Below, piece after piece: positions 24,769-63,057 of a stretch of DNA of 64,000 bases. Source of the DNA: Nitrosopumilus sp. GTDB taxonomy: Archaea; Thermoproteota; Nitrososphaeria; Nitrososphaerales; Nitrosopumilaceae. Position numbers and translations under genes: made by a program. Position 1 is the first letter of the stretch. The number at the start of each line of letters is the position of its first letter. The notes beneath the pieces were generated by a model. It ran no database searches. It was not told the DNA's origin and worked only from the letters and a program-made list of their open reading frames with translations. The DNA is taken from positions 768,001 through 832,000 of the forward strand of contig OZ241857.1 in NCBI GenBank assembly GCA_965203315.1. Reading direction: 5' to 3'.

Positions 24769-24800
24769 TACAAGCTTTTGATGAGAATATCAATAACATG
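24769..24800 (+). repeat. S-layer cassette site 1 (no TATA box outside it)
   Basis: TACAAGCTTTTGATGAGAATATCAATAACATG; inverted partner at 29924-29955. Confidence 0.85.
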
Positions 24801-27800
24801 AATAACGAAATAGGACGAAAAACAACTAGTTTAATACTAATGACGATAATGGTCGCAGGCGGACTGACCTTTGCTATACCAAGCACGGAGCCAGTATACG
24901 CCCAGTCGACACCAAATCTATACGTCTCAGCTGCTGATCCAAATGGATACGGAGCTAGATTCGACAACACCTTTGGCGGTATACAGTATGTAGAGGTCAT
25001 CGTAAGTGATCCGTTACTAACCGATCCAAATGATGCTATGCCAAGAGTCACAGTCAATGATGATCCACTCCATTTACAACATGGTGGTGACGGTTCTTGG
25101 TATGGCTACTTTGCAGATAAAGAACGAGACGGTAATGGAGATGGTACTATTGGCGGTAGCGCTGTCGGTGATGTTAACAATGATCAACAAAAATTTAGAA
25201 ATGCGTTTCTCAGTGAGCTACCATACCAGAGAGGCAGTACAGATGACAAGATACTCATCACTAATGCCGACAATGTTGAACACGTAAAGTATCTTGAACT
25301 TGATGATGGGGACGAAGTTGACGTTGTTTATCACAAGGCTGGAAATCCTCAGACAGTAACCGTGACATACGACACGTCTAAAAACAATTCAATCGAGCTA
25401 GATCGAGACTTTTACCCAAGAGGCGCAAATGTCTATCTAACGATCACAGATCACATACTAAACGTCGACCCAACTGAGAAAGACTTTGTACATCTGATGC
25501 TCCAGACTACCACGGGTGTTACTGATGGTAAGATGCGTATCGCTTATCAGCACAGTACTAATCCTGCCACTACTGAGACGTTCAGAACAGATACCGGTAC
25601 ACTTGGGTGTGAAGATGATTGTATACTCGAGGTACCTATGGGCGATATGGAAAAGGTACTTGATGTTAAATTAAATACTCATAGCGCTAATACTGTCGTG
25701 GGACTCAAATTCGAAGAGACCGGACCAAACACCGGTATCTTTGAACTTGCAGACAATGGCGGATCAATAAAGATCAAAGACGATGCTCCACGAGGAACAA
25801 ACACCGTAATCACATACGACAAAGATGATACTGTCGCAGTAAACCTACGACTTACATCTGCTACAGTAAACCTCGATATCGATGACGGCACATGGAACTC
25901 TGGCGAAAAGATCGACTTAACCATAGTCGATGCAGATCAAAACAAAGACAGTGATGCAGAAGATGATCAAACGATAATCAATCCAGACGCAAGAATTCCA
26001 ATATTCATGACTGGAGATCCACATACTCTGGCAGATGGAAAAAATGCTACAATATATGCATATACTGGAGGCAATAAATTTACTGCTTATTCAACAGTAA
26101 CTGGAACTAACGTACATGCTCTAAACTATACCGTAGATGACAGTCATAGAGGAATTATATCATCTTTTGAAACTAAAACAGTCAAGAGAATTGCTATTCC
26201 TCTAGGAACATTAGGAGATCTCCACGAGTCAATAAACGATGATGATCTCAACGGTACAGGTAACTTTACTGGACGCAACATATTCCACTATGACTATCGT
26301 ATCTTTGACAGAAATGACATAACAACTGAACTGTTACTACTTGACAATAGCAGAAGTGTACTTCGTGCCGGAACCATCATGGTTACTGCTGCAGCACTAC
26401 CATATGACGTTAAGGCCGATGTGAGAGATCTAACGGGTTGGTTTATTGCTGAAATTAATGGAGGCAACTATGATCAATCTACTGATCTCAGATTATCTAG
26501 TTCAGAATTGATGGCAGAGAATATCAACAACAACACTCCGGTCATACTATCGCTGAATTTCGGTACTCCATTTGAGTTGAAAGGTGGAACGGAATATCCC
26601 ATAGTCGCAGATTTCTTCTCGTATGGATTCTATAACGATGGCGCACAAGCAGGCGAGAGAGTTGCGAACCAAATAATACGAGTCGAGGTCGAAGAGACTG
26701 GTGAGAACACTAGCACCTTTACAGGAACACTCGAGTACATCATGGTAAATCAACTCGACATGATCGTGACCGATACTGCTGTAACGACAGGAACTGGTAA
26801 TAGCATAACGTATCCAAAGACAGACTACATATTCGATAGTATCACACCAACAGGCAACGAAGTCAAATTCATCGCCTTTGAAGACATCACTGGTTCTGAC
26901 GCGCGAGTAAACTATGCAGACATGGACTCTAACGGCAACATGGCTGTGGTCTCTGACCAACAAGATATCGCAACCTCTAGTGGTGTGGTATCTCTGAACG
27001 CAGAGACATACAGTGTAGGCAGCAATGTCGTTATAACACTAGAGGACGCAGACTTGAACACAGATCCTGACAGAGCAGATACCTATACTGTAGTGAGGGA
27101 CAACGCCAACGCGGATCCAGATAGAGATCAAGTGGGCAAAGATGTAACCAATACCGGTAACAAAACACATGATATCATGTACGAGTCTCTACTACCAGGT
27201 GGTAACTCGTTAGGAATGCTCCTAGAGGTAACCATTGGTGGTGAGAGATGGAAATCTGGCGCATGTAGCCTAGATGATGGAGTTCAGAACGGACTAGGTA
27301 AAACAGGATTCACTCTACAAGAGACCGGACCCAGCACAGGAGTCTTTACAGGTTCATTTTCTGTACCAAAAGAGGTATGCATGGGATCTGACAAACTATC
27401 TGTAAGCGGCAAAGACATTGGTGTAACATATCTAGACTTTAGAGATGCATCTGGTCAGATAGTCACAGCAGGTGACTCTGCATCGATTGGTGCAAGTACA
27501 GGCTCTGTATCTCTAGATAGAACTGTATATCCAGTCCCATATGGTCAGGGTACAGCAGGTTCTTCTAGAGCCCTAGACATGGCCGGAGCAAATCTTGCAG
27601 GCGGTACAGTCAAAGTCTATGTTCAAGTAAACGACCCAGATTACAACTTGAATCCTACAGGCGAGGACAAGATCGAGGACGAGGACGGAAATGGTCCAGT
27701 AAAGATCACGATCTCCCGCAGTGGTGACGAGTGTCTAATAGGTCACGCAGGCGGTGAGACATCAGTCGCAACCGACGAGATCAGTAGATTGATGCAAGAT

Positions 27801-29639
27801 CGAGATACAAAGAGAGATCTCTATAATGCAGACAAGACAAACACTGACAAACAGACAGCATATCTCTTGGCACAACTAAAGTATGATAATGCTAGAAGTA
27901 CAGGTGGTGCATGCCCGGTTCCAGAACCGTTTGGTGCTCTAACAGAGACATCTCCTGAATCAGGAGTGTTCGAAGTAAGCTTTGATCTATCTTACAAGAT
28001 AGGACCAAGCAGTACCGACTGTCCAAATGATGGTAACTGTATCCTACAAGGTGACATACTCACCGTACAGTACAACGACACAACAGACGCTTCTGGTAAT
28101 CCACGTACAGTCACAGACTCTGCTACCTTTGATCTACGAAACGGTGCTCTACAGACAGACAAGTCTGTATATGTGATAGGCTCGGACATGATCGTAACAC
28201 TCATCGATCCAGACCTTGATCTAGACAGCGGTACACGCGAAACATACACACTTGATCTGATCAAGTGGGACTCGGACGCAGGTACCAAGAATCTGAGTGA
28301 AGGTATATTCGATGCAGAACCAGGCTCTCTACGAGAGACTGGTCCTAGCACAGGTATCTTCCAAGTGGTCATATCTGTTCCCAAGGCCATAGACAACGAC
28401 AGACTAGAACGAGGCGAAGAGATCAAGCTAGAATACACCGACTATGGACCATCAGGTGCAGACTTTGTAGGTGATAACACAGAAGATATCGACAGAACGG
28501 TATTCACATCAAACTTTGGTGCTACAATAGAACTAGATCAAAGTGTATACAGTTGGACCGACAAGGTATTCATTACTGTAACAGCTCCTGATCACAACCT
28601 AAACACAAACCAAGTAGACGAGATTGGTGCTAATCCATATCCAGTGCGTGTTGCTACAAGATCCGACGACATTAAAAACTACAAACTCGTAGAGACAGGT
28701 ACAAACACTGGTATCTTTACAGGTGAAGTAATACTGACAGGATTCTCGTACGACGCAGACGGTGATCAAGATACAGGCGAAGATGGTAAAGACGTCACAG
28801 GTCGTACATGTGACACATGTAATGGACCAACCGATGGACTATTACCAACAGACAACGACGACGGACTCGAGGTATCATTCGAGTTCTCTGACGACGAGAC
28901 TGTTCGCAAGTCTGCTCTAATCCGTTGGAACATTGGTGAAGTTCAGTGGCTAGAAGCAAGTTATCCTGCTACAGCTACAGGCGTACTACGTGTAATCGAT
29001 CCCGACATGAACTTGAATCCAGAATCTGCAGACAACTTTGAGGTCAAAGTATGGTCTTCTAGTGCACCTAGTGGAATAACCCTTACAGTAACAGAGACTC
29101 AGCCAGCAAGTGGTATCTTTGAAGGTACTGTATTCTTTGGACTCTCTGTCCAATCAGGTGGTCACAAACTATCCACAGAAGAAGGAGACACAGTCACTGC
29201 AAAGTACAGCGACAACACTCTACCTGCTCCGTACAATACAGGCGACTCTGAAGACATCACTGCAACCACCATAATAGGAACAATAGTACCTCCTCTAGAA
29301 CGAGTAAAGATCGAGTCGTTGAGAATAGTAGACTCTACAGGTACAACACTCAGTACAGTATCAATAGATCAACAAGTCCAGATCACTGCAGATTTGACAA
29401 ACACACAAGACAAAGATCAACCATTTGCATACTTGGTACAAATTCAAGATAGCGATGGCGTTACAGTATCTCTGTCTTGGATTGATGGTTCACTAACACC
29501 ATCTCAGTCGTTTAGTCCATCTCAGTCTTGGATACCAACTGCACCAGGCGAATACACAATTACCGTATTTGCATGGGAGTCGTTGACTATACCAACTGCA
29601 CTATCACCACAACAGACAACAACAATAACTGTAAACTAG
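24798..29639 (+). CDS. Nitrosopumilus-type S-layer protein, copy 1
   Basis: MNNEIGRK..SLILMTIM..GG signal, repeated ETG.NTG.F Ig-like modules, C-terminal QPFAY.VQI...W.P...GEY...F.WES...P.ALS. Confidence 0.9.
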   Translation: MNNEIGRKTTSLILMTIMVAGGLTFAIPSTEPVYAQSTPNLYVSAADPNGYGARFDNTFGGIQYVEVIVSDPLLTDPNDAMPRVTVNDDPLHLQHGGDGSWYGYFADKERDGNGDGTIGGSAVGDVNNDQQKFRNAFLSELPYQRGSTDDKILITNADNVEHVKYLELDDGDEVDVVYHKAGNPQTVTVTYDTSKNNSIELDRDFYPRGANVYLTITDHILNVDPTEKDFVHLMLQTTTGVTDGKMRIAYQHSTNPATTETFRTDTGTLGCEDDCILEVPMGDMEKVLDVKLNTHSANTVVGLKFEETGPNTGIFELADNGGSIKIKDDAPRGTNTVITYDKDDTVAVNLRLTSATVNLDIDDGTWNSGEKIDLTIVDADQNKDSDAEDDQTIINPDARIPIFMTGDPHTLADGKNATIYAYTGGNKFTAYSTVTGTNVHALNYTVDDSHRGIISSFETKTVKRIAIPLGTLGDLHESINDDDLNGTGNFTGRNIFHYDYRIFDRNDITTELLLLDNSRSVLRAGTIMVTAAALPYDVKADVRDLTGWFIAEINGGNYDQSTDLRLSSSELMAENINNNTPVILSLNFGTPFELKGGTEYPIVADFFSYGFYNDGAQAGERVANQIIRVEVEETGENTSTFTGTLEYIMVNQLDMIVTDTAVTTGTGNSITYPKTDYIFDSITPTGNEVKFIAFEDITGSDARVNYADMDSNGNMAVVSDQQDIATSSGVVSLNAETYSVGSNVVITLEDADLNTDPDRADTYTVVRDNANADPDRDQVGKDVTNTGNKTHDIMYESLLPGGNSLGMLLEVTIGGERWKSGACSLDDGVQNGLGKTGFTLQETGPSTGVFTGSFSVPKEVCMGSDKLSVSGKDIGVTYLDFRDASGQIVTAGDSASIGASTGSVSLDRTVYPVPYGQGTAGSSRALDMAGANLAGGTVKVYVQVNDPDYNLNPTGEDKIEDEDGNGPVKITISRSGDECLIGHAGGETSVATDEISRLMQDRDTKRDLYNADKTNTDKQTAYLLAQLKYDNARSTGGACPVPEPFGALTETSPESGVFEVSFDLSYKIGPSSTDCPNDGNCILQGDILTVQYNDTTDASGNPRTVTDSATFDLRNGALQTDKSVYVIGSDMIVTLIDPDLDLDSGTRETYTLDLIKWDSDAGTKNLSEGIFDAEPGSLRETGPSTGIFQVVISVPKAIDNDRLERGEEIKLEYTDYGPSGADFVGDNTEDIDRTVFTSNFGATIELDQSVYSWTDKVFITVTAPDHNLNTNQVDEIGANPYPVRVATRSDDIKNYKLVETGTNTGIFTGEVILTGFSYDADGDQDTGEDGKDVTGRTCDTCNGPTDGLLPTDNDDGLEVSFEFSDDETVRKSALIRWNIGEVQWLEASYPATATGVLRVIDPDMNLNPESADNFEVKVWSSSAPSGITLTVTETQPASGIFEGTVFFGLSVQSGGHKLSTEEGDTVTAKYSDNTLPAPYNTGDSEDITATTIIGTIVPPLERVKIESLRIVDSTGTTLSTVSIDQQVQITADLTNTQDKDQPFAYLVQIQDSDGVTVSLSWIDGSLTPSQSFSPSQSWIPTAPGEYTITVFAWESLTIPTALSPQQTTTITVN

Positions 29640-29647
29640 TTCAAACC

Positions 29648-29668
29648 TTCTCTTTTTTTCTTTTTTTA
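29648..29668 (+). terminator. Archaeal T-rich terminator
   Basis: TTCTCTTTTTTTCTTTTTTT just after the stop codon. Confidence 0.7.
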
Positions 29669-29763
29669 TATTTACATAATACAATATACACAATGCAGTT
29701 TGTACATAGTATAGCTGTATATCGCATGTAATACCATTCTGTCGGATACTATTGTTATTAACG

Positions 29764-29958
29764 TGATGATCTCTACTCGCTCATTCTTGACTCTTGCATT
29801 ATACAATACTGCTCATTCACGAGATACCTGATACGAGAGATCTGAACTCGGTATGTAGGACAATAGATTGTAAACATCACACTAAACTTTACACAGGCAC
29901 ATTGCACAGCCTGTGCAATTATACATGTTATTGATATTCTCATCAAGAGTTTGTATTT
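29764..29958. repeat. Conserved block downstream of S-layer copy 1
   Basis: Diverged inverted homologue of about 57953-58147. Confidence 0.8.
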
Positions 29959-29981
29959 AAGCCTAATGAACAATTTGTTCA
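29924..29981 (-). promoter_or_regulatory. S-layer cassette site 2 with a full promoter pointing back at the 3' end of copy 1
   Basis: Minus strand TGAACAAATTGTTCA-N5-CTTAAATACAAACTCTTGATGAGAATATCAATAACATG; same layout as 63000-63057. Confidence 0.8.
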
Positions 29982-30348
29982 TGTGCGGATTGTCTCGAGC
30001 AGAATATGTTGAATTCATAATCTGTCAATCTAGTCTCAAACTTGAGTGTTTCTACGAGAGCGTGTACAAACTACGTTTTGGAACTCGGCATGTTGTTTCT
30101 GTACAAATCCCAAACCTGTCACTCTACCAAAATATTCATCAGACAGAGCCCATCGATTTCTATTTTTAGAACTCCCGTACAGATCTTTTCATTTTACATA
30201 ATGTGTGTATTAAACATGTATGAGAAAACAACACATAGCTACAATGATGGCGCAATCCTAGATTTCGTATCTTGTTCTCACAAACTCTGCAATTAAACAA
30301 AACCCTTTCGAGATTCCCTAATATATGATGAATGTGCATACATTATTG

Positions 30349-30624
30349 ATGCTAGTAGACAAGAGGATCTTTATTGGCGGACTTGCAATGCTCATAGTAG
30401 GAATGGTACTAAGTATAGGTATTGCATCAACAATGCCAATTGGTCAGCAAGGCATGACAGAAGAAGAGGAACTAGACCTAGTACTTGCACAGCAAGAGAA
30501 TGAAGATTATACAACACTAGCAGGCATTCTAGTCGGTATTGGATTTCTGCTAATACTCATTAGTTTTGGAACGCGTAGAAGAAAAGGTAAAACTAAACGA
30601 GTCGAGAAGAAACCAGCAGAATAA
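30349..30624 (+). CDS. 2-TM membrane protein
   Basis: Two hydrophobic helices and a basic tail. Confidence 0.75.
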   Translation: MLVDKRIFIGGLAMLIVGMVLSIGIASTMPIGQQGMTEEEELDLVLAQQENEDYTTLAGILVGIGFLLILISFGTRRRKGKTKRVEKKPAE

Positions 30625-30831
30625 GACAAATACTAGATCATCAATTAGATAATGAACGTTGTATATGCAAGACAGTACATAGAATCATTATCAGGATGAC
30701 AAATAAAATTGCGTACATATCTTGAGGACGTATGCTTTAGAGAGACAATATCGTGGAATATACATTACGATTTACAGTCACGAGTTATGTCTCATCATAG
30801 ATATTCGTTTTGTCGGACAATAGTAAATGAT

Positions 30832-31929
30832 CTAAAACTGCCTCAGTACTTTGAAATGTGTATTGCGCTGGGCAGGAGTACGTCCTATCTCTTTCACCAT
30901 AGTTGCGAGCTCATCCACAGAAGAGGTCGTAGGCTTGCCTGCAGATCTATAGATCTCTTCTGAGAAAGCTGTACCTACAAGATCATTTCCGCCGTTCGAT
31001 AATGCTACCTGTGCTAGTTTCTTTCCATAGGCAACCCAATAGATAGAGATGTTATCTAGTATACCAGTAAGCATCAAACGACACAATGCAATAATCTTGA
31101 GATCATATATCGACGAGCATTCAGTGCTTACCAGATTAGTCTCTTCAAGTTCAGTATTGTCTAAACTAAACTTTAATGGAATCATTGTGATAAAACCACC
31201 CGTCTTCTTTTGCAGTTCACGGATCTTTACTAGATGATCAACGATATGTTCGTGTTTTTCTATATGACCATACAACATGGTTACGTTACTTTGGATTCCA
31301 ATATCGTGTGCTTCTCGAATTACGTCGAGCCACTCTTGTCCGGTACACTTGCCACGAACGATCTTGGAACGTATATCAGGATGAAAGAGTTCTGCACCGC
31401 CACCGGGCATAGAGTTCAGACCAGCAGCCTTGAGGCGAGATAGAATCTCTTTTGTAGAATTCTTTGTGAGTTTGGACAGATAATAGATCTCGGCAGCTGT
31501 GAGTGCCTTGATGTTTAGATCAGGATGACTGGATTTGATTGTGCGCATCATCTCTTCATAATATTCCAATCCAAGTTTAGGGTGAAAACCGCCCACAATA
31601 TGCACCTCGGTTGCCCCCATATCACTTGCCATCGATACACGAGTCTTGATCTCTTGTGGAGATAGCGTGTACGCATCATCGTCTTCATCTTTTCTGTAAA
31701 ATGCACACATTTGGCAGCTTGCAGCGCAAACGTTAGTATAGTTCATGTAGTACGATGCTGCAAAAGTTACGACATCCCCTACAGTTCTCCTTCGTACAGA
31801 GTCAGCAACTGCGCCCAAGATATGCAGATTATCATAATCTAGCAACTCTAATCCATCGTTAAAACTTAGTTCTTGTCCTGCAATTACTCGCTCCAATGCA
31901 ACAGAGTCTCTCGCTAGATCTCTTAACAT
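30832..31929 (-). CDS. Radical SAM protein, MqnE/MqnC/CofH family (probably aminofutalosine synthase)
   Basis: NYTNVCAASCQMCAFY, EVHIVGG, MPGGGAE, TMLYGHIE. Confidence 0.85.
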   Translation of the reverse strand: MLRDLARDSVALERVIAGQELSFNDGLELLDYDNLHILGAVADSVRRRTVGDVVTFAASYYMNYTNVCAASCQMCAFYRKDEDDDAYTLSPQEIKTRVSMASDMGATEVHIVGGFHPKLGLEYYEEMMRTIKSSHPDLNIKALTAAEIYYLSKLTKNSTKEILSRLKAAGLNSMPGGGAELFHPDIRSKIVRGKCTGQEWLDVIREAHDIGIQSNVTMLYGHIEKHEHIVDHLVKIRELQKKTGGFITMIPLKFSLDNTELEETNLVSTECSSIYDLKIIALCRLMLTGILDNISIYWVAYGKKLAQVALSNGGNDLVGTAFSEEIYRSAGKPTTSSVDELATMVKEIGRTPAQRNTHFKVLRQF

Positions 31930-32108
31930 AAAAGAGGTTAGTTAGATCTAGTGATATATTCCTTTGACTAGATAGTCTCCTGTTGCGCATCATTAACAAA
32001 ATCATCTCAAGTCTATTCGAGTACGATCTTGTCTAGGACAGTGTAGAGTTTAATATGACAACTATTGTATGGCCACACATTATTAAGAGTAGAATAACAC
32101 ATCAACAC

Positions 32109-32273
32109 ATGGTGCTACCTCTAGCTGATGAATCCAAGCCAAAGTGTTATCTATGTTATGAACGGTTTGACAACATAGATGATCTACGAGAGCATCAAAA
32201 AACCAAACACAGTGATATTGAATCACATGAAAAAACAAAAAAGTCTGCACCAGGAGATGTTACGATCTTTTAG
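32109..32273 (+). CDS. Small C2H2 zinc-finger protein
   Basis: CYLC..F.....L.EH...KH. Confidence 0.75.
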   Translation: MVLPLADESKPKCYLCYERFDNIDDLREHQKTKHSDIESHEKTKKSAPGDVTIF

Positions 32274-32730
32274 ATCTTTGTGCAATAGTCTTTGAGACTT
32301 GAGCTGGAATAAACTGATCATCTATAGACAATGCGCACTCAAAGTATTTTATAGCATCATCGATCTCTCCTGCCTCTCCCAAGGATAGACCTTTGTACTC
32401 TAGTGCCAAAATAGATCTAGGATCTAGTTTTAACACTTTGTCATAATATTGGATCGCAGACACGTACTTGGCTTGAGAGTGTAGTGCTGTTCCTTTGTTC
32501 AACAATGCAGTGTGATTATCTGGGTCGATCGTTAATGCCTCATCATACATTTGTATTGCAAGATCATATCTCCCCATACTTTGAAGTGTAACACCTTTGT
32601 CAATCAATGCGTGAACATGTTTAGGATCGGTGTCGAGGATCACATCATATAGATTAATTGCGAGTGTGAGATCGCCATCTTCAACGTGTTCGATTGCTCG
32701 AGACAGTAACGTATCGATCTCATCATGCAT
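32260..32730 (-). CDS. TPR protein
   Basis: Four 34-aa TPR units (KG..L...G.Y..AI..YD.AL..DP). Confidence 0.9.
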   Translation of the reverse strand: MHDEIDTLLSRAIEHVEDGDLTLAINLYDVILDTDPKHVHALIDKGVTLQSMGRYDLAIQMYDEALTIDPDNHTALLNKGTALHSQAKYVSAIQYYDKVLKLDPRSILALEYKGLSLGEAGEIDDAIKYFECALSIDDQFIPAQVSKTIAQRSKRS

Positions 32731-32769
32731 GTATTTGTTTACTCTAACAACAATAATAGATTTGCCACA

Positions 32770-32997
32770 CTAGGAAGAGTTACGATCTCTAGGATCAAGT
32801 TTAAGTGAATGTTCAAAGTATTCAATTGCCTCTTCATACCTACCAAGGCTACGCAGTACAACACCCACATTATTCCACAAGTCAGGATCAGATCTATTCA
32901 GAGATAATGCCTTTTCAAAGTATATCAAAGCCTGATCAAAGTCAGCATCATCTAGATATCGCTTTGCTTGACTTACTAGTTTGTCAATATTATCCAT
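32770..32997 (-). CDS. Small TPR protein
   Basis: Two TPR units. Confidence 0.85.
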   Translation of the reverse strand: MDNIDKLVSQAKRYLDDADFDQALIYFEKALSLNRSDPDLWNNVGVVLRSLGRYEEAIEYFEHSLKLDPRDRNSS

Positions 32998-33483
32998 ACA
33001 TCATCTACATAGGCAAAGTGAACTTGTCAATATTAAATTAGGTAATTGTAAAGCATACATCACATAGACAATATCGGTCGATTTGAGCAAAGATCTAAAC
33101 ATTAATGATTCATCAGCAAGATGGCATTGTCACGGACATTTAGGTCACATGTTAGATCAAGACGCGTATTCAAATATTCTAACATACAAAAAAATCACGA
33201 CTTTCCCATATACAGTGTATCTCATTTTCTGCCATACAGATTTGTCAAAAGTCAACATGCCAAAATATCAGAGTTATGACTGAGTCTTGTCATGCTTAAG
33301 TTACTTGCAATATATCTAGCACCAAGCAATAAAATTGTCAATCGCAGAGTAACATACCAATATAACTTAGTTTTATATTCACATGATCTACTGCATGTCC
33401 GCATCAGAGATTGTGTAAAAATTACAGTTCTATAACGAGTAGACATAAATTCATAATACAACAAGAGATCAAAGAATAGTGAC

Positions 33484-34047
33484 TTGAGAGTAGAGACCGG
33501 CACTTTAATCATATTTTTAGCAGCATTATGCTTGCTACTAGTCGATATGCCTGATTCTTATTCACAAGAGACGGCTGTGGACATCAGAGTATCGGAACAA
33601 GACAAGATTATCTGGATAACCGGATTTGGTATTGCGGTGATAGGTCTGTTTATATTTTTAGCCAGAGATATCATCTTACGGCGAAAGACGTCATACGATA
33701 CACAAGATTTAGAATCAAAGAAAGATAAGACGTTTGAAAAATATCACTCGGATTGGAATGATGATTATGAAGAGGTTGGAAAACGAACAAGTACAAAAAG
33801 AGATCAAGAGTTTCGTGACGCGATCAATAACGGCGATCTTCCAGATTATTACAGGATACTGGACGTAGAACCAGATGCAACACAAGAAGAGATTAAACAA
33901 AAGTTTCGATCAAAGGTAAAAGAGATCCATCCAGACAAAACACGTCAACAGACAGAAGAGGCCATGGCAGAACTAAATCACGCATACGAGATACTTTCAG
34001 ATGTAGACAGTAGAGCAAAATACGACAGATATAAGAGTCAGATCTAG
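33484..34047 (+). CDS. Membrane-anchored DnaJ-domain protein
   Basis: DYYRIL...EIK...HPD...N.AYEILSD. Confidence 0.9.
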   Translation: MRVETGTLIIFLAALCLLLVDMPDSYSQETAVDIRVSEQDKIIWITGFGIAVIGLFIFLARDIILRRKTSYDTQDLESKKDKTFEKYHSDWNDDYEEVGKRTSTKRDQEFRDAINNGDLPDYYRILDVEPDATQEEIKQKFRSKVKEIHPDKTRQQTEEAMAELNHAYEILSDVDSRAKYDRYKSQI

Positions 34048-34421
34048 CACACTCGTACAATCATCATGTTCAGTTGTATGTCGGCAGGAGTTTGAATCAT
34101 GTTTGTGAGATAAGCATAGATGTGAACTTGAGAGTCACCAGTGTTGGCAATTATGTGTAGCTCTTCAAATTCAGTATTTGGGCCAAGCATCTTGGAAGAC
34201 AGTTTTGAAAGTATCTTTAGTTCTGTGATCAGTCCACGCATCTGATATGCAGTCTTGTCTGTAAAGTAGACGCCGCCACGATTGGCAGGCCTGTTCATGG
34301 GCGTAGGAACATTATCAATAGTCGTTTGTGTGATACGATATCTTTGACCATCAAGATCAAGCACATAATTTACAAAAGATTCACCGACTAGTGAGTCCAA
34401 CAGCTTGGTGTCAACTGACAT
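34044..34421 (-). CDS. Hypothetical protein
   Basis: 125-aa ORF containing RGGVYF and MLGPNTEF segments. Confidence 0.7.
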   Translation of the reverse strand: MSVDTKLLDSLVGESFVNYVLDLDGQRYRITQTTIDNVPTPMNRPANRGGVYFTDKTAYQMRGLITELKILSKLSSKMLGPNTEFEELHIIANTGDSQVHIYAYLTNMIQTPADIQLNMMIVRVC

Positions 34422-34639
34422 TCAAATACAATATAGTAATAGTTCTTTTGTGTGTTTCTAGATGTAGATAACAGTCTACCTAGATAATTTTAGAGATCAT
34501 CTGTGTCAATTGCTCTTCAAATGTTTCGAGTTGGAGATTTATGCATACTAATGGACAACATAACCCAACGTATTTTGTATCCTAGTATTGTAACAGACAC
34601 GACATAAACTGTCATCAATTACAAAATGTATAGATCCAT

Positions 34640-35995: not shown

Positions 35996-36136
35996 AACGA
36001 GGTCATAAACTTGATAGTATAAACTTGATAGTATAAAATGGACGACAAACGCATAAATTATTATCATTATTGATTTGCCAATTGGTTAAAAAAAATCAAC
36101 TCAAACCCGCTAATATGAGTAAAGACAGTAAAGAGT

Positions 36137-36280: not shown

Positions 36281-36294
36281 TCCACAGTGAGCAA

Positions 36295-55441: not shown

Positions 55442-56337
55442 ATATGTACACCAAGTATATGTCTGCGACATGTACCAAGTGTATCATCTTTTGCAGTGAT
55501 CAGATCATCTGTTGTACCCAACATTCGAATAACAACTCCTGCATCGTCTGCCAGCATAGATACACCAAAAGAGATAGACTCGATCTGTGACATATTGTGA
55601 GATATGATATCTCGAAGTCTCTGCATATTATGCTGTTTATTGATAACAACTAGTGTACCCAATGACTGATTTGTAGACATCATTCCTAGACCACGTATGT
55701 CTTGTTTTGCAGGTTCGATCTTTGTGTTATCATATGCTCTAATGATACCATCTTGGTTTTGATAACGAAATCGTAGATTGCATAGATCATATGCAAACGA
55801 TTCGTTCATTGCAGTACGGCCTGAGGTCAGAATCTCAGAATATATCAAAGTAGCAGTGTCATGTACTGTTGCATCTGTCATCTGATAGTATCTAGAGTTG
55901 GCATAAGGAATTATCTGTTCTGGCATGTACTCTAGATAACAACCTGCATTTACATTGAGTTTTGTAATGTGTGTGGCAGAGTCTCTATTCATTCCGTATA
56001 TCCTAGTCGCACCTTGAGTCGTAATGTGCGCCATTGCGGCATTATTCAAGATGATCTCACTAGTGTATCGATCACCCTGCAAGATACCACCGGATGTAGA
56101 CAAGAGATATACAAATGCCAAATTTGGTAGACTAGGTTCAAGATACAAGACGCGTTGTACCTGCAATGGGGCTTGCGTGAACTGTTTTGAGAGTATTGTT
56201 TTACCAGACTTGGATTCAAGCGTCATTTGAATAGTGCCCATTTTGCCGGCCTTGCCGACACCTAGCTGGTCTATATGCTCGTCAAATCTTTCAATATCTC
56301 TAGGTCGTGTTAGCACACCATCATACCCCGGATACAC
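55438..56337 (-). CDS. ureD: Urease accessory protein UreD
   Basis: GGILQGD, TTQGATRIY, LEYMPE..IPY..S, GR.A..E.F. Confidence 0.92.
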   Translation of the reverse strand: MYPGYDGVLTRPRDIERFDEHIDQLGVGKAGKMGTIQMTLESKSGKTILSKQFTQAPLQVQRVLYLEPSLPNLAFVYLLSTSGGILQGDRYTSEIILNNAAMAHITTQGATRIYGMNRDSATHITKLNVNAGCYLEYMPEQIIPYANSRYYQMTDATVHDTATLIYSEILTSGRTAMNESFAYDLCNLRFRYQNQDGIIRAYDNTKIEPAKQDIRGLGMMSTNQSLGTLVVINKQHNMQRLRDIISHNMSQIESISFGVSMLADDAGVVIRMLGTTDDLITAKDDTLGTCRRHILGVHI

Positions 56338-56953
56338 TCAAGATTCTATCTACAATATGATCTACAACCCCAGACATACCTTGATTGGTCTTGCAGTTTA
56401 CAAACTCGAATGGCTTTGAGCCACGTATCTTTGTCGCATCACTATACATAATATCCAGATCTGCTCCAACTAGTGGCGCAAGATCGATCTTGTTGATTAT
56501 TAATAGATCACAACTCTCTATGCCTAAGCCACCCTTTCGCGGATATTTGTCGCCTCCTGCAACGTCTATTATATATAAAAAATAGTCAGCGATCAATGGG
56601 CTAAATGTTGTGGTGATGTTGTCTCCACCACTCTCGATTATGATCAGATCGATCTCGTCATGTTCTGCTTCAATCTCTTCGATTATTGCAAGATTCATGG
56701 ACGGATCTTCTCTGATTGCAGTGTGGGGGCAACCACCGGTGGCAACTCCAATTACCATACTCTCAGGAAGTAGATTGTTCTTTGTAGCTAGATTAGCACG
56801 CATCCTATCTGCGTCTTCTTTAGATATTACATCATTAGAGATTATGCACACTTTGTATCCACGTTCGAACAAGATTGGAACGAGTTGTTCTATGAGTTGT
56901 GTCTTGCCCGAACCTACAGGACCGCCTATCCCAACTCTTGGAATATGTCTCAC
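56321..56953 (-). CDS. ureG: Urease accessory GTPase UreG
   Basis: GGPVGSGKT, TGGCPHTAIRED, ESGGDN, INKIDLA. Confidence 0.95.
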   Translation of the reverse strand: MRHIPRVGIGGPVGSGKTQLIEQLVPILFERGYKVCIISNDVISKEDADRMRANLATKNNLLPESMVIGVATGGCPHTAIREDPSMNLAIIEEIEAEHDEIDLIIIESGGDNITTTFSPLIADYFLYIIDVAGGDKYPRKGGLGIESCDLLIINKIDLAPLVGADLDIMYSDATKIRGSKPFEFVNCKTNQGMSGVVDHIVDRILSVSGV

Positions 56954-57369
56954 TATTGATAGACTATTGTAAATCTAATAAGTATTGAGATCAGTGGAAC
57001 ACGTTGTGGAACACAGTGTAAAAGAGGTCATAGAATTCAATAGTTTGTAGTCAATAGACCAGAGCTGTACGTAGCACATAATTGAAATGACTAGATTTGC
57101 TCAAAATTAGTGATGTGTAACCAGTTGCGGTTCTGTTGGGATGCGATAACTATCCAGAACGGGTATTGCTCAAATCAAATAGTTTATGCAAACACACATA
57201 GTTAGATAATTTGTGATCTACATAAAGTTGCCGACCCTTTACCACGTTCAAAAATATCTACTGCATCTCGATGATCTGAAACACCATAATCGACAATGTG
57301 AGATAGTTTTGATGTTGGGTGTTTGCAAATAGTTGATCGTCATGCATTTTTATTACACAAGACCAAAAG

Positions 57370-57660
57370 ATGTGCATGTATATTGTAATAGTCAAACTAA
57401 AACTCAAAGACGGGGTAAAAGACAACTTTGCAAGGTGGTTTACTGAATCAAATAAGACGATATCAAAATTTTCTGGATTTGTCTCTAGGCGATTGATCAT
57501 GGACAATGATGGCAATTATAGAGTTTTGATCGAGTTTCAGGACAAGAACTCTTTTACTGTAATGCAACAGAGCTCTGAACATCAAGAGTTGCATAAAGTA
57601 GGACATGCTTTTCTAAGCGAACCGCCGATAAGAAGAGATTACAAACTGGTTGCAGAATAG
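57370..57660 (+). CDS. ABM (antibiotic biosynthesis monooxygenase-like) domain protein
   Basis: GF.SRRL...F.D..SF.....S.EH pattern. Confidence 0.75.
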   Translation: MCMYIVIVKLKLKDGVKDNFARWFTESNKTISKFSGFVSRRLIMDNDGNYRVLIEFQDKNSFTVMQQSSEHQELHKVGHAFLSEPPIRRDYKLVAE

Positions 57661-57749
57661 ATCAAGGGATCAAGACCACCACACATCACACAAGATGACA
57701 GTTGATGAGATTTCATTATTACTGCAACTTATCGATAGATTCTGCGGAC

Positions 57750-57937
57750 AGTTCTGTTCAATTGACTGGGTTTGAGACCATTATGACATTATCTCAAAAA
57801 AAAATGCGCAACACGTGACTCAAAACAGCAGTAATTTACGATGGTTGGTTTAAGACCGTTTCCATATTTTGTAAAATTTTTCGAAGATTTTGGGCAGAAA
57901 ATGTCAACCCCCCCCCCCCAGTCAATTGAATAGAACC
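57750..57937. mobile_element. MITE family B
   Basis: Ends AGTTCTGTTCAATTGACTGGG / CCCAGTCAATTGAATAGAACC. Confidence 0.85.
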
Positions 57938-57955
57938 CATGAATTACCTCCAAAA

Positions 57956-57987
57956 TACAAACTCTTGATGGTAATATCAATAACATG
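57956..57987 (+). repeat. S-layer cassette site 3 (no operator; degenerate TATA position)
   Basis: TACAAACTCTTGATGGTAATATCAATAACATG; inverted partner at 63000-63031. Confidence 0.85.
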
Positions 57988-58200
57988 TATAATTGTACAG
58001 GTTGTACAAGTGCTTGTAAAGTTATCTGACATGACCTTTTACAGTCTATTAGTCTACGTACCTACTTCACATCTCTTGTATCAAGTATCTTGTGAATGAG
58101 TAATATTGTATAATGCAAGAGTCGAGGATGAAGGAGTAGAGATCATCGCATATTGTCATTGACACTGTATGTAGATATCACTATGCATAGTTGTATCATA

Positions 58201-58219
58201 TAAAAAAAGAAAAAGAAAA
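58201..58219 (-). terminator. Archaeal T-rich terminator
   Basis: Minus strand TTTTCTTTTTCTTTTTTT after the stop codon. Confidence 0.7.
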
Positions 58220-58226
58220 GTTTGAA

Positions 58227-61200
58227 CTAGTTTACAGTTATTGTTGTTGTCTGTTGTGGAGATAGTGCAGTTGGTATCGTCAACGACTCCCATGCAAATA
58301 CGGTGATTGTGTATTCACCGGCTGCTGTTGGTATCCAAGACTGAGATGGACTAAACGACTGAGATGGTGTCAGTGAACCATCAATCCAAGACAGAGATAC
58401 AGTTACGCCATCGCTATCTTGAATTTGTACCAAGTATGCAAATGGCTGGTCTTTGTCTTGTGTGTTTGTCAAATCTGCAGTGATCTGGACTTGTTGATCT
58501 ATTGATACCGTACTGAGTGTTGTACCTGTAGAGTCTACTATTCTCAACGACTCGATCTTTACTCGTTCTAGAGGAGGTACTATTGTTCCTATTATGGTGG
58601 TTGCAGTGATGTCTTCAGAGTCGCCTGTATTGTATGGAGCAGGTAGAGTGTTGTCGCTGTACTTTGCAGTGACTGTGTCTCCTTCTTCTGTGGATAGTTT
58701 GTGACCACCTGATTGGACAGAGAGTCCAAAGAATACAGTACCTTCAAAGATACCACTTGCTGGCTGAGTCTCTGTTACTGTAAGGGTTATTCCACTAGGT
58801 GCACTAGAAGACCATACTTTGACCTCAAAGTTGTCTGCAGATTCTGGATTCAAGTTCATGTCGGGATCGATTACACGTAGTACGCCTGTAGCTGTAGCAG
58901 GATAACTTGCTTCTAGCCACTGAACTTCACCAATGTTCCAACGGATTAGAGCAGACTTGCGTACAGTCTCGTCGTCAGAGAACTCGAATGATACCTCGAG
59001 TCCGTCGTCGTTGTCTGTTGGTAATAGTCCATCGGTTGGTCCATTACATGTGTCACATGTACGACCTGTGACGTCTTTACCGTTTTCTCCTGTGGAATCA
59101 TCACCGTCTGCGTCGTACGAGAATCCTGTCAGTATTACTTCACCTGTAAAGATACCAGTGTTTGTACCTGTCTCTACGAGTTTGTAGTTTTTAATGTCGT
59201 CGGATCTTGTAGCAACACGCACTGGATATGGATCAGCACCAATCTCGTCTACTTGGTTTGTGTTTAGGTTGTGATCAGGAGCTGTTACAGTGATGAATAC
59301 CTTGTCGGTCCAACTGTATACACTTTGATCTAGTTCTATTGTAGCACCAAAGTTTGATGTGAATACCGTTCTGTCGATATCTTCTGTATTATCACCTACA
59401 TAGTCTGCACCTGATGGTCCATAGTCGGTGTATTCTAGCTTGATCTCTTCGCCTCGTTCTAGTCTGTCGTTGTCTATGGCCTTGGGAACAGATATGACCA
59501 CTTGGAATATGCCTGTGCTAGGACCAGTCTCTCGTAGAGAACCTGGTTCTGCATCGAATATACCTTCACTCAGATTCTTGGTACCTGCGTCCGAGTCCCA
59601 CTTTATTAGATCAAGTGTGTATGTTTCGCGTGTACCGCTGTCTAGATCAAGGTCTGGATCGATGAGTGTTACGATCATGTCCGAGCCTATCACATATACA
59701 GACTTGTCTGTCTGTAGAGCGCCGTTTCGTAGATCAAAGGTAGCAGAGTCTGTGACTGTACGTGGGTTACCAGAAGCATCTGTAGTGTCGTTGTACTGTA
59801 CTGTAATGATATCACCTTGTAGGATACAGTTACCGTCATTTGGACAGTCAGTACTGCTTGGTCCATCGATATAAGATAGATCAAAGCTTGCCTCAAAGAC
59901 TCCAGATTCAGGAGATGTCTCTACCAGAGCATAGTTTGTTGGATCTGGCTCCGGACATGCACCGCCTGTACTTCTAGCGTTATCGTACTTTAGTTGTGCC
60001 AAGAGATATGCTGTCTGTTTGTCGGTATCTGTCGTGGCTGCCTTGTATTCGGCCTCCTTTTTATCTAGATCACGTTTTAATGCACTGATTGCATCATTCG
60101 CGTCTGTTGTAGTACCACCTGCATAGGCTATTGCACACTCGTCACCACTGCGAGAGATCGTGACCATTACTGGACCATTTCCAGACATGCCTTCGATCTT
60201 GTCCTCACCTGTAGGATTCAAGTTGTAATCTGGGTCGTTTACTTGAACATAGACTTTGACTGTACCTAGTGGAAGAGGTTCAGGAGGATTCTTCATGTCC
60301 AAGAATCCTGAAGAGCCATCGTCTGTACCAGTACCATACGGAACTGGGTATACAGTTCTATCTAGAGATACAGAGCCTGTACTTGCACCAATCGATGCAG
60401 AGTCGCCAGCTGTAACTATCTGACCAGAGGCATCTCTAAAGTCTAGATATGTTACACCAATGTCTTTGCCGCTTACAGTTATTTTAGGTTCGTTCGTGTT
60501 TACACTACCATCATCATTAAAGTTGCATACCTCTTTTGGTACAGAAAATGAACCTGTAAAGACTCCTGTACTGGATCCGGTCTCTTGTAGAGTGAATCCT
60601 GTTGCACCGAGTCCGTTCTGAACACCATCAGACAGAGTACAACCAGATTGCCATCTCTTACCATCAAAGGTTACCTCTAGTAGCATTCCTAGTGATTTGC
60701 CACCTGGTAGTAGAGACGTGTACATGATATCATCTGTATTGGTTACGTTCATGCCTACTTGATCTCTATCTGTGTCGGTGTGGTTACTGTCCATCACTAC
60801 TGTATAGGTATCAGCTCGATCAGGATCTGTATTCAGATCAGAGTCCTCTAGAGTGATTACGACATTACTGCCTACACTGTATGTCTCTGCGTTCAGAGAT
60901 ACCACTCCACTGGTGGTTGCGATATCTTGTTGATCAGAGACTACGGCAGTATTGTCGTTTGCATTTTGATCGACATAGTTTACTCGCGCGTCAGAGCCGG
61001 TAAGATCCTCAAAGGCGATGAATTTGACTTCGTTGCCTATTGGAGTGATGTCTTTGTATGTATCTGCATTGTTTACGTTGAGTTGGTTTATCATTATGTA
61101 CTCTAGTGTTCCTGTAAAGGTGCTGGTGTTCTCACCGGTCTCTTCTACCTCGATTCGTATTATCTGATTGTTGACACGCTCAGAGGCTTGTGCTCCATCA

Positions 61201-63002
61201 TCTGTGAATCCAATGCTAAAGATATCTGCAACTATTAGATATGTCTTGTCGGTAAGATCGACTTGTTTTTTAATCTCTGACGCTATGGCAATTCTATATT
61301 CACCATCAAAGTCAGAGAGAGTCTTTGTGTCTGTATCGTCGTTAAACTTTATAAATTTACTTGCGAGATCAAAGACTCCTCTTCCATCACTAGCTAAATC
61401 TGCATGGTATCTTTGAGAGTTTATTTGAAATGGGTTATACGCCACAATCCAATAACTGCTACCACCAAGACTGCCAAAGTCATAGTTTAGTAGATTTACA
61501 CCTACAAAATCATTACCCATTTGCATGTTGGCTTTGTGTTCAGCAACTGTACCAAGAACAACCATGATGGTACCGTATCGACCATCATTTGGATTTCTTA
61601 AATCGTTACCGGTCCTGTTGATGTACATATTTGCCACGTAATGATCTGTGTCATATGTAAAGCCATACTGACTGGTTTGACCACAATGGATGGCCATGTA
61701 ATTTGTACCAAGAACGTTACTTGTTTTCGCATCAATCCTATTGTCAACTATCAGAGGGCATGGATTAATGCCGCCGGTAGTAGAACTATCACTACCTATA
61801 GAATATGGGCTCCATGGACGATCCTTTGTTAGTGTATACGGTTCGCCAATCATAAACGTTGGAATTCTTGCGTCTGAATTGGTTATCTTTTGATCGTCGT
61901 CTACTTCGCTGTTGAGATTTTGATCTGCATCAACGATAGTTAGATCAATGACTTCACCAGAGTTCCATGTACCATCTGCGATATCTAGGTTTACAGTAGC
62001 TGTGGTAAGTTGTGTGTTTACAGATACAGTCTCATCACTATACATGATTTGTGTGTTTTGGCCTCGAGGAGCCATATCTTCAATCATTATTGGAGACTTG
62101 TCATCGTTGGTGATAGTAAAGACGCCTGTGTTTGGACCTGTCTCTTCAAATATGTAATTTGTAGTACCAGATTCTAGTTGTAGTAGATCATTGGTATCCG
62201 GATTCATATTATCTATGCTAAAATTACACTTGTCATCTTTACAACCAAGATTATTGTTAGTAGGCATGATTGGAGTCTTTCCGCCCGTTCCAGAGCCAAC
62301 ACGATCATCATACATATAGGCTGGTGCTCCACCATCGACTGCATATCTCCAAATATCTTTAGTAGTTGGATCGATGTTTAGTATGTGATCGGTTATCTCC
62401 ACATGTACGTGAGAGTTTCTTGGGTACGATGTTCTATCTAGAGTAAGATCATTGTTTACAGAGTCGTCGTATGTGATCGTTATTGTCTGTGGCGCTCCAG
62501 CCTTGTGATATACAATATCAAAGGTATCATCTAGATCAAAGGTCTTTAGAACACTATTGTCTGCAGGAATAGTGATGCCTGCTTGTCTAATGAGATTAGG
62601 CATATTAGGCTGAGCAGATCCCCACAAAGCTTGAGCATCAGCAAAGGTAAGTCCATCATTACTGTCACCACCATCAGCAGCTACTCTAAAGTAACCATAC
62701 CAATTACCATCAGTGTGTCTGAACATCTTTAGTTCTTTGTCATCAACTCTTACACGAGGTTCAGCATCGTCTGCATCGCGGATCAACGGATCATTTACAA
62801 TTACTTGCACTATCTGTAGTCCACCAAAGGTGTTGTCGAACCTAGATCCATATCCATTTGGATCAGCAGCTGAGACGTATAGATTTGGTGTCGACTGGGC
62901 ATAGACTGGCTCCATGCTTGGTATAGCAAAGGTCAGTCCGCCTGCGACCATTATCGTCATTAGTATTAAACTAGTTGTTTTTCGTCCTATTTCGTTATTC
63001 AT
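58227..63002 (-). CDS. Nitrosopumilus-type S-layer protein, copy 2
   Basis: Paralogue of 24798-29639 with near-identical N- and C-termini and a divergent middle. Confidence 0.9.
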   Translation of the reverse strand: MNNEIGRKTTSLILMTIMVAGGLTFAIPSMEPVYAQSTPNLYVSAADPNGYGSRFDNTFGGLQIVQVIVNDPLIRDADDAEPRVRVDDKELKMFRHTDGNWYGYFRVAADGGDSNDGLTFADAQALWGSAQPNMPNLIRQAGITIPADNSVLKTFDLDDTFDIVYHKAGAPQTITITYDDSVNNDLTLDRTSYPRNSHVHVEITDHILNIDPTTKDIWRYAVDGGAPAYMYDDRVGSGTGGKTPIMPTNNNLGCKDDKCNFSIDNMNPDTNDLLQLESGTTNYIFEETGPNTGVFTITNDDKSPIMIEDMAPRGQNTQIMYSDETVSVNTQLTTATVNLDIADGTWNSGEVIDLTIVDADQNLNSEVDDDQKITNSDARIPTFMIGEPYTLTKDRPWSPYSIGSDSSTTGGINPCPLIVDNRIDAKTSNVLGTNYMAIHCGQTSQYGFTYDTDHYVANMYINRTGNDLRNPNDGRYGTIMVVLGTVAEHKANMQMGNDFVGVNLLNYDFGSLGGSSYWIVAYNPFQINSQRYHADLASDGRGVFDLASKFIKFNDDTDTKTLSDFDGEYRIAIASEIKKQVDLTDKTYLIVADIFSIGFTDDGAQASERVNNQIIRIEVEETGENTSTFTGTLEYIMINQLNVNNADTYKDITPIGNEVKFIAFEDLTGSDARVNYVDQNANDNTAVVSDQQDIATTSGVVSLNAETYSVGSNVVITLEDSDLNTDPDRADTYTVVMDSNHTDTDRDQVGMNVTNTDDIMYTSLLPGGKSLGMLLEVTFDGKRWQSGCTLSDGVQNGLGATGFTLQETGSSTGVFTGSFSVPKEVCNFNDDGSVNTNEPKITVSGKDIGVTYLDFRDASGQIVTAGDSASIGASTGSVSLDRTVYPVPYGTGTDDGSSGFLDMKNPPEPLPLGTVKVYVQVNDPDYNLNPTGEDKIEGMSGNGPVMVTISRSGDECAIAYAGGTTTDANDAISALKRDLDKKEAEYKAATTDTDKQTAYLLAQLKYDNARSTGGACPEPDPTNYALVETSPESGVFEASFDLSYIDGPSSTDCPNDGNCILQGDIITVQYNDTTDASGNPRTVTDSATFDLRNGALQTDKSVYVIGSDMIVTLIDPDLDLDSGTRETYTLDLIKWDSDAGTKNLSEGIFDAEPGSLRETGPSTGIFQVVISVPKAIDNDRLERGEEIKLEYTDYGPSGADYVGDNTEDIDRTVFTSNFGATIELDQSVYSWTDKVFITVTAPDHNLNTNQVDEIGADPYPVRVATRSDDIKNYKLVETGTNTGIFTGEVILTGFSYDADGDDSTGENGKDVTGRTCDTCNGPTDGLLPTDNDDGLEVSFEFSDDETVRKSALIRWNIGEVQWLEASYPATATGVLRVIDPDMNLNPESADNFEVKVWSSSAPSGITLTVTETQPASGIFEGTVFFGLSVQSGGHKLSTEEGDTVTAKYSDNTLPAPYNTGDSEDITATTIIGTIVPPLERVKIESLRIVDSTGTTLSTVSIDQQVQITADLTNTQDKDQPFAYLVQIQDSDGVTVSLSWIDGSLTPSQSFSPSQSWIPTAAGEYTITVFAWESLTIPTALSPQQTTTITVN

Positions 63003-63057
63003 GTTATTGATATTCCAATCAATAATTTGTATTTAAAGACTGTGAACGATTTGTTCA
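63000..63057 (-). promoter_or_regulatory. S-layer cassette site 4 with a full promoter driving copy 2
   Basis: Minus strand TGAACAAATCGTTCA-N5-TTTAAATACAAATTATTGATTGGAATATCAATAACATG. Confidence 0.85.

Follow-up and report, generated by a model that had tools for sequence, protein, structure and literature searches.

The stretch analysed here, called the window throughout, comprises 64,000 nucleotides of the ammonia-oxidising archaeon Nitrosopumilus sp. (assembly GCA_965203315.1, contig OZ241857.1; contig 1 positions 768001-832000 of a 2.47-Mb genome in 7 contigs, labelled G000) and contains two genes for large surface-layer (S-layer) proteins, each enclosed by a pair of short inverted sites. 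The 32-bp site, searched for with the pattern TACAA-N4-TTGAT-N6-ATCAATAACATG, matches the window four times with 0 mismatches each, whereas 0/100 shuffles of the window gave any match. An earlier note on this DNA had placed four sites at the positions and strands given below, with 30 of 32 bases identical in the first pair, and had described two cassettes of the same content, with a promoter pointing left outside only the right-hand site of each pair, copy 2 of the gene starting at such a promoter and copy 1 lying in the opposite orientation at a site without a TATA box. The exact pattern search and direct reading of the sequence bear out each part of this anatomy, for which we regard a selected, reversible inversion switch of S-layer genes as the probable explanation.

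Cassette 1 (C1c) begins with a putative left recombination site (24769-24800, plus strand) that has the core TTGAT-GAGAAT-ATCAA and ends in the ATG of a 1613-aa open reading frame, the S-layer paralogue copy 1 (24798-29639, plus strand). The gene is followed by a T-rich terminator (29640-29680, plus strand), similar to the T-run found after the S-layer genes of relatives, by a conserved non-coding block (29681-29923, minus strand) and by the putative right site (29924-29955, minus strand), which is identical to the left arm at 30/32 positions and has the same spacer, GAGAAT. Overlapping the outer end of this site is a fixed S-layer promoter (29954-29981, minus strand), with its TATA box TTAAATA at 29954-29960 and its palindrome TGAACAAATTGTTCA at 29967-29981, behind which the block is currently placed. 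The interior of cassette 2 (C1d) mirrors that of cassette 1, running from a putative left site (57956-57987, plus strand; spacer GGTAAT) through the conserved block and terminator region (57988-58226, plus strand; homologous to 29681-29923) to the 1591-aa S-layer paralogue copy 2 (58227-63002, minus strand), whose ATG forms the end of the putative right site (63000-63031, minus strand; spacer TGGAAT, unlike the left arm at 2/6 positions). The fixed promoter of this cassette (63030-63057, minus strand) has its TATA box at 63030-63036 and its palindrome TGAACAAATCGTTCA at 63043-63057.

The order of gene, T-rich terminator, conserved block and site is thus the same in both cassettes, and the promoter module, a palindrome TGAAC(A/G)AT(T/C)TGTTCA plus TATTTAA, is located outside the right-hand sites only and points left, into the cassette. 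The left-hand flanks are without a TATA box and read ..GCATC/TACAA and ..CCAAAA/TACAA. When the outer flank of each site is coded as P (promoter) or N (none) and the inner end as G (gene start) or B (block), the left and right sites are N/G and P/B in cassette 1, N/B and P/G in cassette 2. Copy 1, which is intact and resides on a promoterless flank, is presumably OFF, and copy 2, which is joined to its promoter, presumably ON. The two copies are ~90% identical across the 3' 2.9 kb of the genes, and the blocks are 83.6% identical (29765-29958 versus 58147-57953). The block end of cassette 1 opens with an ATG and the 15-bp palindrome TGCACAGGCTGTGCA. This block-end palindrome, TGCACAGGCTGTGCA or TGTACAGGTTGTACA, is found at 29908-29922 and 57996-58010, has the same form as the promoter palindrome TGAACAAATYGTTCA and shows matched half-site changes between the two block subtypes.

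Both encoded proteins match the N. maritimus S-layer protein (PDB 8c8k) with E=0 across ~1,310 residues, which upholds their earlier designation as S-layer proteins; in the alignment with chain A (1152 bits), residues 302-1612 of copy 1 are paired with 403-1733 of the chain. A search of Pfam found no model matching the two proteins. The protein start MNNEIGRKTTSLILMTIMVAGG.., an N-terminal signal sequence, agrees with the start MNNEIGRKITSLTLM.. of relatives, and homologues of this NmSLP / Nmar_1547 type are present in 55 of the 60 genus genomes used for homologue counts. A more distant S-layer-like paralogue, with up to 62% identity, is located at contig 1 738685-743043, outside the cassette family.

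The two cassettes claimed in the earlier note proved to belong to a larger set, a genome scan for further sites having recovered seven complete cassettes together with remnants. The site is found at 17 distinct genome positions, which include seven distinct inverted pairs with arms 5.1-5.3 kb apart, each cassette containing a homologue of the N. maritimus S-layer protein; the left arm of an eighth pair lies within a 17.7-kb sequence duplicated at the starts of contigs 1 and 5. In 7/7 pairs a promoter module resides at one outer flank and none at the other. The gene start is at the promoter in three cassettes (ON arrangement; C1d, C5b and C5c) and the block in four (OFF arrangement; C1a, C1b, C1c and C1e), the blocks being non-coding and 240-290 bp long in all of them. 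Counted outward from the ATG, homology between flanks extends for 57-60 bp where there is a promoter and for 29-54 bp where there is none, with unique DNA beyond. Comparison of the neighbouring genes revealed no gene family that recurs next to cassettes, and no target-site duplications were found around them. Only 10 distinct promoter modules are present genome-wide, of which 8 are at cassettes, one is before a recombinase gene and one is before a radical-SAM Mqn-like gene.

The promoterless flanks include homologous pairs that are joined to different inner ends: C1d_L (block) aligns with C1g_L (gene) over 46 bp at 93%, and C5c_R (block) with C1a_R (gene) over 55 bp at 85%. Likewise, two promoter subtypes and two block subtypes are each found in both states. 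Shared flank subfamilies with swapped inner ends exclude independent decay of promoters and can be explained by inversion or an equivalent exchange at the sites; judging from the assembled arrangements, several inversions must have occurred among the cassettes. This bears directly on an explanation that dispenses with inversion, in which each cassette would hold two convergent transcription units, one producing the S-layer mRNA and the other a short RNA or peptide from the block, with a shared duplicated leader and operator and with one promoter decayed per cassette. Such a view would account for the ATG and the short Cys-rich frame with which the block opens (14 codons in copies 1 and 2), as well as for the resemblance of the block palindrome TGYACAGGYTGTRCA to that of the promoter. 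However, decay that struck each cassette independently cannot explain why homologous decayed flanks adjoin a gene start in one cassette and a block in another, a 1-nt insertion in the C5b block breaks the short frame, and the RNA fold predicted from the consensus is weak, at -17 kcal/mol for 180 columns. Convergent units would, in addition, leave five intact 4.9-kb genes without a canonical promoter yet under purifying selection, and we consider them very improbable.

A further signature is found within the site itself. The 6-bp spacer is the same in both arms for five of the seven pairs and differs between cassettes, a degree of agreement equalled by 7 of the 5040 permutations obtained when the arms were permuted among the seven pairs, whereas the N4 bases just outside the core are the same in both arms for only one pair of the seven. 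Spacer concordance combined with N4 discordance places exchange or homogenisation on the spacer side of the site, and the spacer pattern is that expected for the partner sites of a tyrosine recombinase. The core TTGAT-N6-ATCAA is kept in 15/17 sites, the exceptions being a one-base change in each C1e arm, and the right arm, ATCAATAAC-ATG, is invariant in 17/17, including those at promoterless flanks and block ends, which serve no gene. Identity between partner arms is 91% within the 32-bp site, compared with 52% in the adjacent 33 bp, and the stretch that the arms have in common today measures only 25-32 bp. These patterns indicate that the site is maintained by selection.

The same features can be set against the possibility that the cassettes represent a silent archive or fossil, in which the repeats stem from inverted duplication, RadA occasionally recombines them by homology and the promoterless copies serve as gene-conversion donors, with neither a dedicated recombinase nor a regulated switch. 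The paralogues are indeed mosaics, ~90% identical over the 3' 3 kb and 40-70% identical in the N-terminal part. In addition, a remnant of the promoter palindrome (AATCGTTCAC) survives in the promoterless flank of C1b, from which it follows that the repeats were once longer, and homologous recombination between two S-layer genes offers the best account of a 40-kb rearrangement described below. Less readily accommodated are the shortness of the arm identity and its sharp edge, and the concordance of the spacer when the N4 bases 5 bp away are not concordant, which is hard to achieve via untargeted conversion tracts. Nor would an archive be expected to keep a perfect right arm and ATG at promoterless flanks and block ends, where they have no coding role, or to place an S-layer promoter with a site-like core before a recombinase gene. 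On this evidence we judge an origin of this kind to be unlikely, and continue to prefer a selected inversion switch.

The 40-kb rearrangement concerns two of the remnants, C1f and C1g (L017 and L018; contig 1 1804952-1810560 and 1845265-1850420), which lie 40 kb apart and have in common a 35-bp identical site in direct orientation. One gene of this pair is flanked by a promoter and block on one side and by a poly-G leader on the other, and the second gene is without a block, a layout that presumably arose when homologous recombination between these S-layer genes inverted the 40 kb. In the variant leader (contig 1 ~1810515 and contig 6 ~25110; L017 and L019), 9-11 G replace the left half of the site, giving ..TTTATATGGCAC-Gn-ATAAATTAATAACATG, and near codon 135 each of the two genes that follow this leader is broken by an insertion (~0.3 kb and ~0.9 kb). 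At the starts of contigs 1 and 5, positions 1-17756 are identical up to the site, with 4 differences that all fall inside the site, after which the two contigs enter different promoterless flanks. An orphan cassette interior makes up contig 4; it is split by an IS66-like element and is 97% identical to the 5' kb of the cassette at the contig 1 and 5 starts. These contigs reflect either an ambiguous assembly or a structurally varying population; the fork between contigs 1 and 5 inside the site was set aside as evidence of inversion, because the fork point is also the edge of the repeat common to all copies.

The promoter of the cassettes is the canonical S-layer promoter of the genus, since the same module precedes the S-layer genes of relatives. 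At 17 of the 20 S-layer loci compared, from 19 genomes, a single S-layer gene is preceded by the palindrome TGGACAATTCGTCCA, by TTAAATA or TTTTATA and by a leader ending in ..CAATAACATG. By this comparison, the right arm of the site derives from the ancestral leader. None of those 17 leaders contains the left arm TTGAT, and a similar leader, TTGATTGGAAATTAATAAC, occurs in one other genome (G079). The sites lie within the predicted mRNA leader, between the TATA box and the ATG, and inversion between them would by symmetry rebuild an identical promoter-leader-ATG junction in all seven pairs. We note that a 371-aa radical-SAM Mqn-like gene follows the tenth promoter module (contig 5 289124-290320), in which a site-like TACAAACTTTTGAAAGTTCTATCAA is found, and that a second gene, of the CofH/MqnC type, lies just past the cassette 1 promoter (window 30832-31929).

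According to the switch that we favour, at least seven cassettes would be independently invertible, the inverting segment in each consisting of the gene, its terminator and the non-coding block between inverted sites. The canonical promoter is fixed in the chromosome outside one site, with the other outer flank promoterless. An enzyme, most likely a site-specific tyrosine recombinase, would bind the TTGAT/ATCAA arms, exchange strands at or beside the 6-bp spacer and invert the 5-kb interior, rebuilding the identical promoter-leader-ATG junction with either the gene (ON) or the block (OFF) attached to it. In the ON state the promoter would read the leader, the ATG and the S-layer gene, and in the OFF state it would read the block. 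The block opens with a palindrome resembling that of the promoter and contains no T-run of five or longer, and OFF transcripts may therefore continue antisense into the 3' end of the gene. Cassette-specific spacers would protect the chromosome from the rearrangements that exchange between different cassettes would cause, and each cassette would thus flip on its own. We infer the short-term reversibility, the expression states, the crossover point and the enzyme from the sequence.

The genes on promoterless flanks are intact in 5/5 cases (1613-1675 aa), and their ratio of nonsynonymous to synonymous substitution rates (dN/dS) is no higher than that of promoter-linked genes, although dS in the N-terminal part reaches ~0.8-1.5. 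Comparisons between OFF genes give dN/dS values of 0.24-0.43 in the N-terminal part and 0.17-0.34 in the C-terminal part, those between ON genes 0.29-0.37 and 0.20-0.35, respectively, and copy 1 of the window yields 0.24-0.48 against the other copies. Such values would not be expected of genes silenced for good. Among ten aligned copies (eight intact, two interrupted), the mean pairwise identity is ~0.2-0.4 at alignment columns 100-800 and ~0.5-0.6 beyond, with intact genes showing ~90% pairwise identity across the 3' half. In a study of the N. maritimus S-layer, the N-terminal domains are outermost and the protein runs from the outside to the membrane from its N to its C terminus (PMC11153153). 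The variable part would therefore be the exposed part and, as the paralogues differ mainly in these N-terminal, outward-facing domains, switching between them would change the exposed surface.

Of 13 public sequencing runs listed, none of them of RNA, four were compared as Logan contigs (X1, X3, X4 and X5; window 22500-31500), from which rare variants drop out. The reference junction of cassette 1, comprising flank, site and gene start, is present as a 363-bp contig with 0 differences in X1, X3 and X5, which derive from two studies; because this contig recurs in three independent runs, the arrangement of cassette 1 is not an assembly error. For the cassettes in general, an assembler confused by repeats might have set the orientations arbitrarily, and the identity of contigs 1 and 5 over their first 17.7 kb, their divergence inside a site and the orphan interior on contig 4 show that the assembler did have difficulty with these repeats. 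Given, however, that the 363-bp contig crosses the cassette 1 junction without a difference in three runs, and that the arms share only 23-32 bp, far less than the length of a long read, we find an artefact barely credible. Both orientations are known only across paralogous cassettes, from assembled sequence.

Several irregularities in the runs were set aside. Contig breaks at 29953/29958, considered as a sign of inversion, are explained by 35-42 bp common to the promoter modules. One X4 contig extends from the cassette 1 block end to 29958 and then into the reverse complement of the promoterless flank of cassette 2; either two cassettes have recombined or the contig belongs to cassette 2 and aligns in part only, and it is not used as evidence. 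Neither is the depth of the cassette 1 junction contig in X3, where a value of 121 versus 233-459 for the flanks may reflect mixed strains. The joint of opposite strands at 24327/24457 in X4 was rejected as a switch, since it lies within a 171-bp repeat of more than 20 copies. A metagenome scan for the site returned four chance matches only, none of them in sequence similar to this genome.

Two tyrosine recombinase genes of ~545 aa are present in the genome, at contig 1 1467141-1468766 (542 aa) and 412103-413644, and no serine recombinase was found there. A promoter module at contig 1 1467043-1467093, 48 bp upstream of the start of the first gene, is 90% identical to the promoter-plus-site of C1e and keeps a site-like TACAAACTTTAGAAAGAGACATCAA (TACAA-ACTT-TAGAA-AGAGAC-ATCAA), with homology stopping right after ATCAA; no promoter module was found for the second gene. 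The XerA model gives only a weak match, on the candidate gene, for which no sequence relative was found in the PDB, and no tRNA gene was found near either recombinase gene. A homologue of 548 aa (40% identity, E 2e-131) resides in GC-rich DNA of the relative G077 (OZ242041.1), where 167 bp separate it from the 5' end of an S-layer copy that has neither promoter nor start codon. In G077, two 2,470-aa S-layer genes (L126/L127) are arranged tail to tail, one of them with a promoter, and their 5' ends are 31 kb apart. Pairwise alignment of the two recombinase homologues shows the conserved motifs RGLD, HExR and GHKP(R/K)D(S/T)YEKQ, which we take to be catalytic box residues. The 542-aa recombinase at 1467141-1468766 is the best enzyme candidate. 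In a more elaborate scheme, which we hold to be possible but doubtful, the cassettes would form a combinatorial switchboard, at least seven of them flipping independently and all served in trans by this one enzyme, which, being itself on an S-layer promoter with a copy of the site, would be co-regulated with them and perhaps repressed there.

Beside cassette 1 lies an IS110 element (window 22963-24481; element span 22972-24313) with a 378-aa DEDD transposase (23168-24304, minus strand), situated at the end of the 171-bp repeat (24311-24481; G6/C6 inverted ends; >20 genome copies). This element was considered as an invertase of the DEDD, IS110/Piv type and rejected, as it is one of 14 copies in the genome and its targets (..CCCCCCGTTAAGT/ and ..GACC/TATC) are unlike the site. 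The subgroups among the 14 copies have distinct, specific targets, and the transposase beside cassette 1 is regarded as a bystander.

Pairs of the exact site were not found among 40 relatives, in which G027 gave one single exact match. Leader repeats were found neither at the 20 S-layer loci of the 19 relatives nor at 59 further loci tested of 80 (flanks of at most 1 kb). The Nitrosopumilaceae chromosome G078 (OZ242274.1), which carries four to five S-layer paralogues of 2,770-2,960 aa, has 22-bp inverted repeats at three of its loci (L122, L123 and L124), with one repeat in the leader and the other 210-330 bp upstream. At L122 the promoter abuts the gene (ON), whereas at L123 and L124 the same promoter is located at the far repeat and points away (OFF). 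Between L122 and L124, the segment enclosed by the repeats aligns inverted (209 bp, 82%), whereas the outer flank aligns directly. The repeat core is a short dyad with a variable spacer that differs by locus (AGTTT-N8-AAAYT). From these comparisons, inversion control of S-layer paralogues appears to exist in at least two to three architectures in Nitrosopumilaceae, but to be rare.

A number of observations weigh against an inversion switch driven by the candidate enzyme. In X1, the depth of the cassette 1 junction contig (329) is equal to that of neighbouring unique contigs (314-381), and there is therefore no large inverted subpopulation in this run; among the Logan contigs listed for X1, X3, X4 and X5, there is no inverted cassette 1 junction. 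No recombinase gene adjoins any cassette, which, together with the lack of mixed orientation in X1, is also what would be seen with a silent archive. The recombinase family is patchy in the genus (15/60 genomes) and multi-copy, it does not track S-layer copy number, and its neighbours, like those of mobile-element integrases, are defence-type genes (NERD, HerA/NurA, AAA_21). G078, which has the clearest promoter switches, is without the ~545-aa family, and its only tyrosine recombinase has no homologue in the Nitrosopumilus sp. genome. The promoter modules, moreover, are not exclusive to cassettes, given the one that precedes the radical-SAM Mqn-like gene. At the level of the site, the dyad arms of 5 bp (up to 9 bp with degenerate positions) are short for a tyrosine-recombinase core, and two of the three ON cassettes have non-identical spacers (2 and 1 positions differ); speculatively, ON cassettes with mismatched spacers might be temporarily locked. 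Of the switch proposed in the earlier note, the anatomy thus stands, joined by signs of recurrent past inversion and of selection on the site, whereas flipping at the present day and the expression states of copies 1 and 2 are predictions.

Ammonia-oxidising archaea rank with the most abundant microbes on Earth, and their S-layer is both an ammonium-collecting sieve and the outermost surface of the cell. Heritable, reversible exchange of this coat would alter views of virus-host dynamics, strain micro-diversity and S-layer function in the group, and a switchboard, if real, would give up to 2^7 surface compositions. The cassette sites would, in addition, offer a testable natural set of orthogonal recombination sites with a candidate new recombinase family. 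The authors of the N. maritimus study suggest that the S-layer glycan coat may shield the cell from phages (PMC11153153). As far as its accessible text goes, a broad survey counts no more than 12 putative invertons from Archaea, every one of them in Euryarchaeota or Crenarchaeota, and describes programmed inversions as 'only minimally investigated in Archaea' (PMC10028968). A literature search of listings and abstracts found no report of such a system in Nitrosopumilus, Thaumarchaeota or Nitrososphaerota, in agreement with the earlier note, which knew of no described Nitrososphaerota equivalent. If the switchboard is real, Archaea would have their first demonstrated case of programmed DNA inversion serving surface variation, and related Nitrosopumilaceae would have sister designs that use a flipping promoter or a two-gene segment.

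Among known systems, slpA/slpB of Lactobacillus acidophilus, as Boot and colleagues are said to have described in 1996, reportedly relies on a ~6 kb inversion that moves an S-layer gene to or from a fixed promoter via short inverted 5' sequences. The cassettes are alike in that an S-layer gene would be inverted relative to a fixed promoter; in L. acidophilus, however, two genes trade places in one segment, whereas here each cassette combines one gene with a non-coding block, there are at least seven cassettes, each with a promoter of its own, and the host is archaeal. In the sap system of Campylobacter fetus, ~8 S-layer paralogues have conserved 5' ends and one promoter resides on an invertible element between opposed paralogues, inversion being largely RecA-dependent and using hundreds of bp of 5' homology. 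A family of S-layer paralogues is common to both, as would be the choice of expression by DNA inversion, but the promoters here lie outside, one per cassette, and the repeats are 25-32 bp long with a dyad core, an arrangement that is not of the sap type.

The bacterial invertible promoters, such as fimS and the capsule invertons of Bacteroides with the trans-acting master recombinase Mpi, flip a promoter segment of ~0.2-0.3 kb. Like the cassettes, they are many and dispersed, with short inverted repeats separating promoter from gene, and their recombinase may be encoded at a distance. In those systems, however, it is the promoter that flips, whereas here the gene would be inverted as a whole, over 5 kb, against a stationary promoter; the form with a flipping promoter is found in G078. 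The lox, FRT and dif sites consist of dyad arms around a 6-8-bp asymmetric spacer, where partners share the spacer and differing spacers isolate pairs. The putative recombination sites of the cassettes likewise have dyad arms and, in five of the seven pairs, a shared spacer, but their arms are much shorter (5-9 bp). Also comparable is G077, which has the same protein and recombinase families and a promoterless S-layer copy that inversion would bring to a promoter; it differs in having one large segment, two tail-to-tail genes and an adjacent recombinase, in contrast to the many single-gene cassettes and distant recombinase described here. With single whole genes set against a non-coding end, a promoter for each cassette, short cassette-specific sites and an archaeal host, the system is distinct from the bacterial S-layer switches and from multi-locus invertons.

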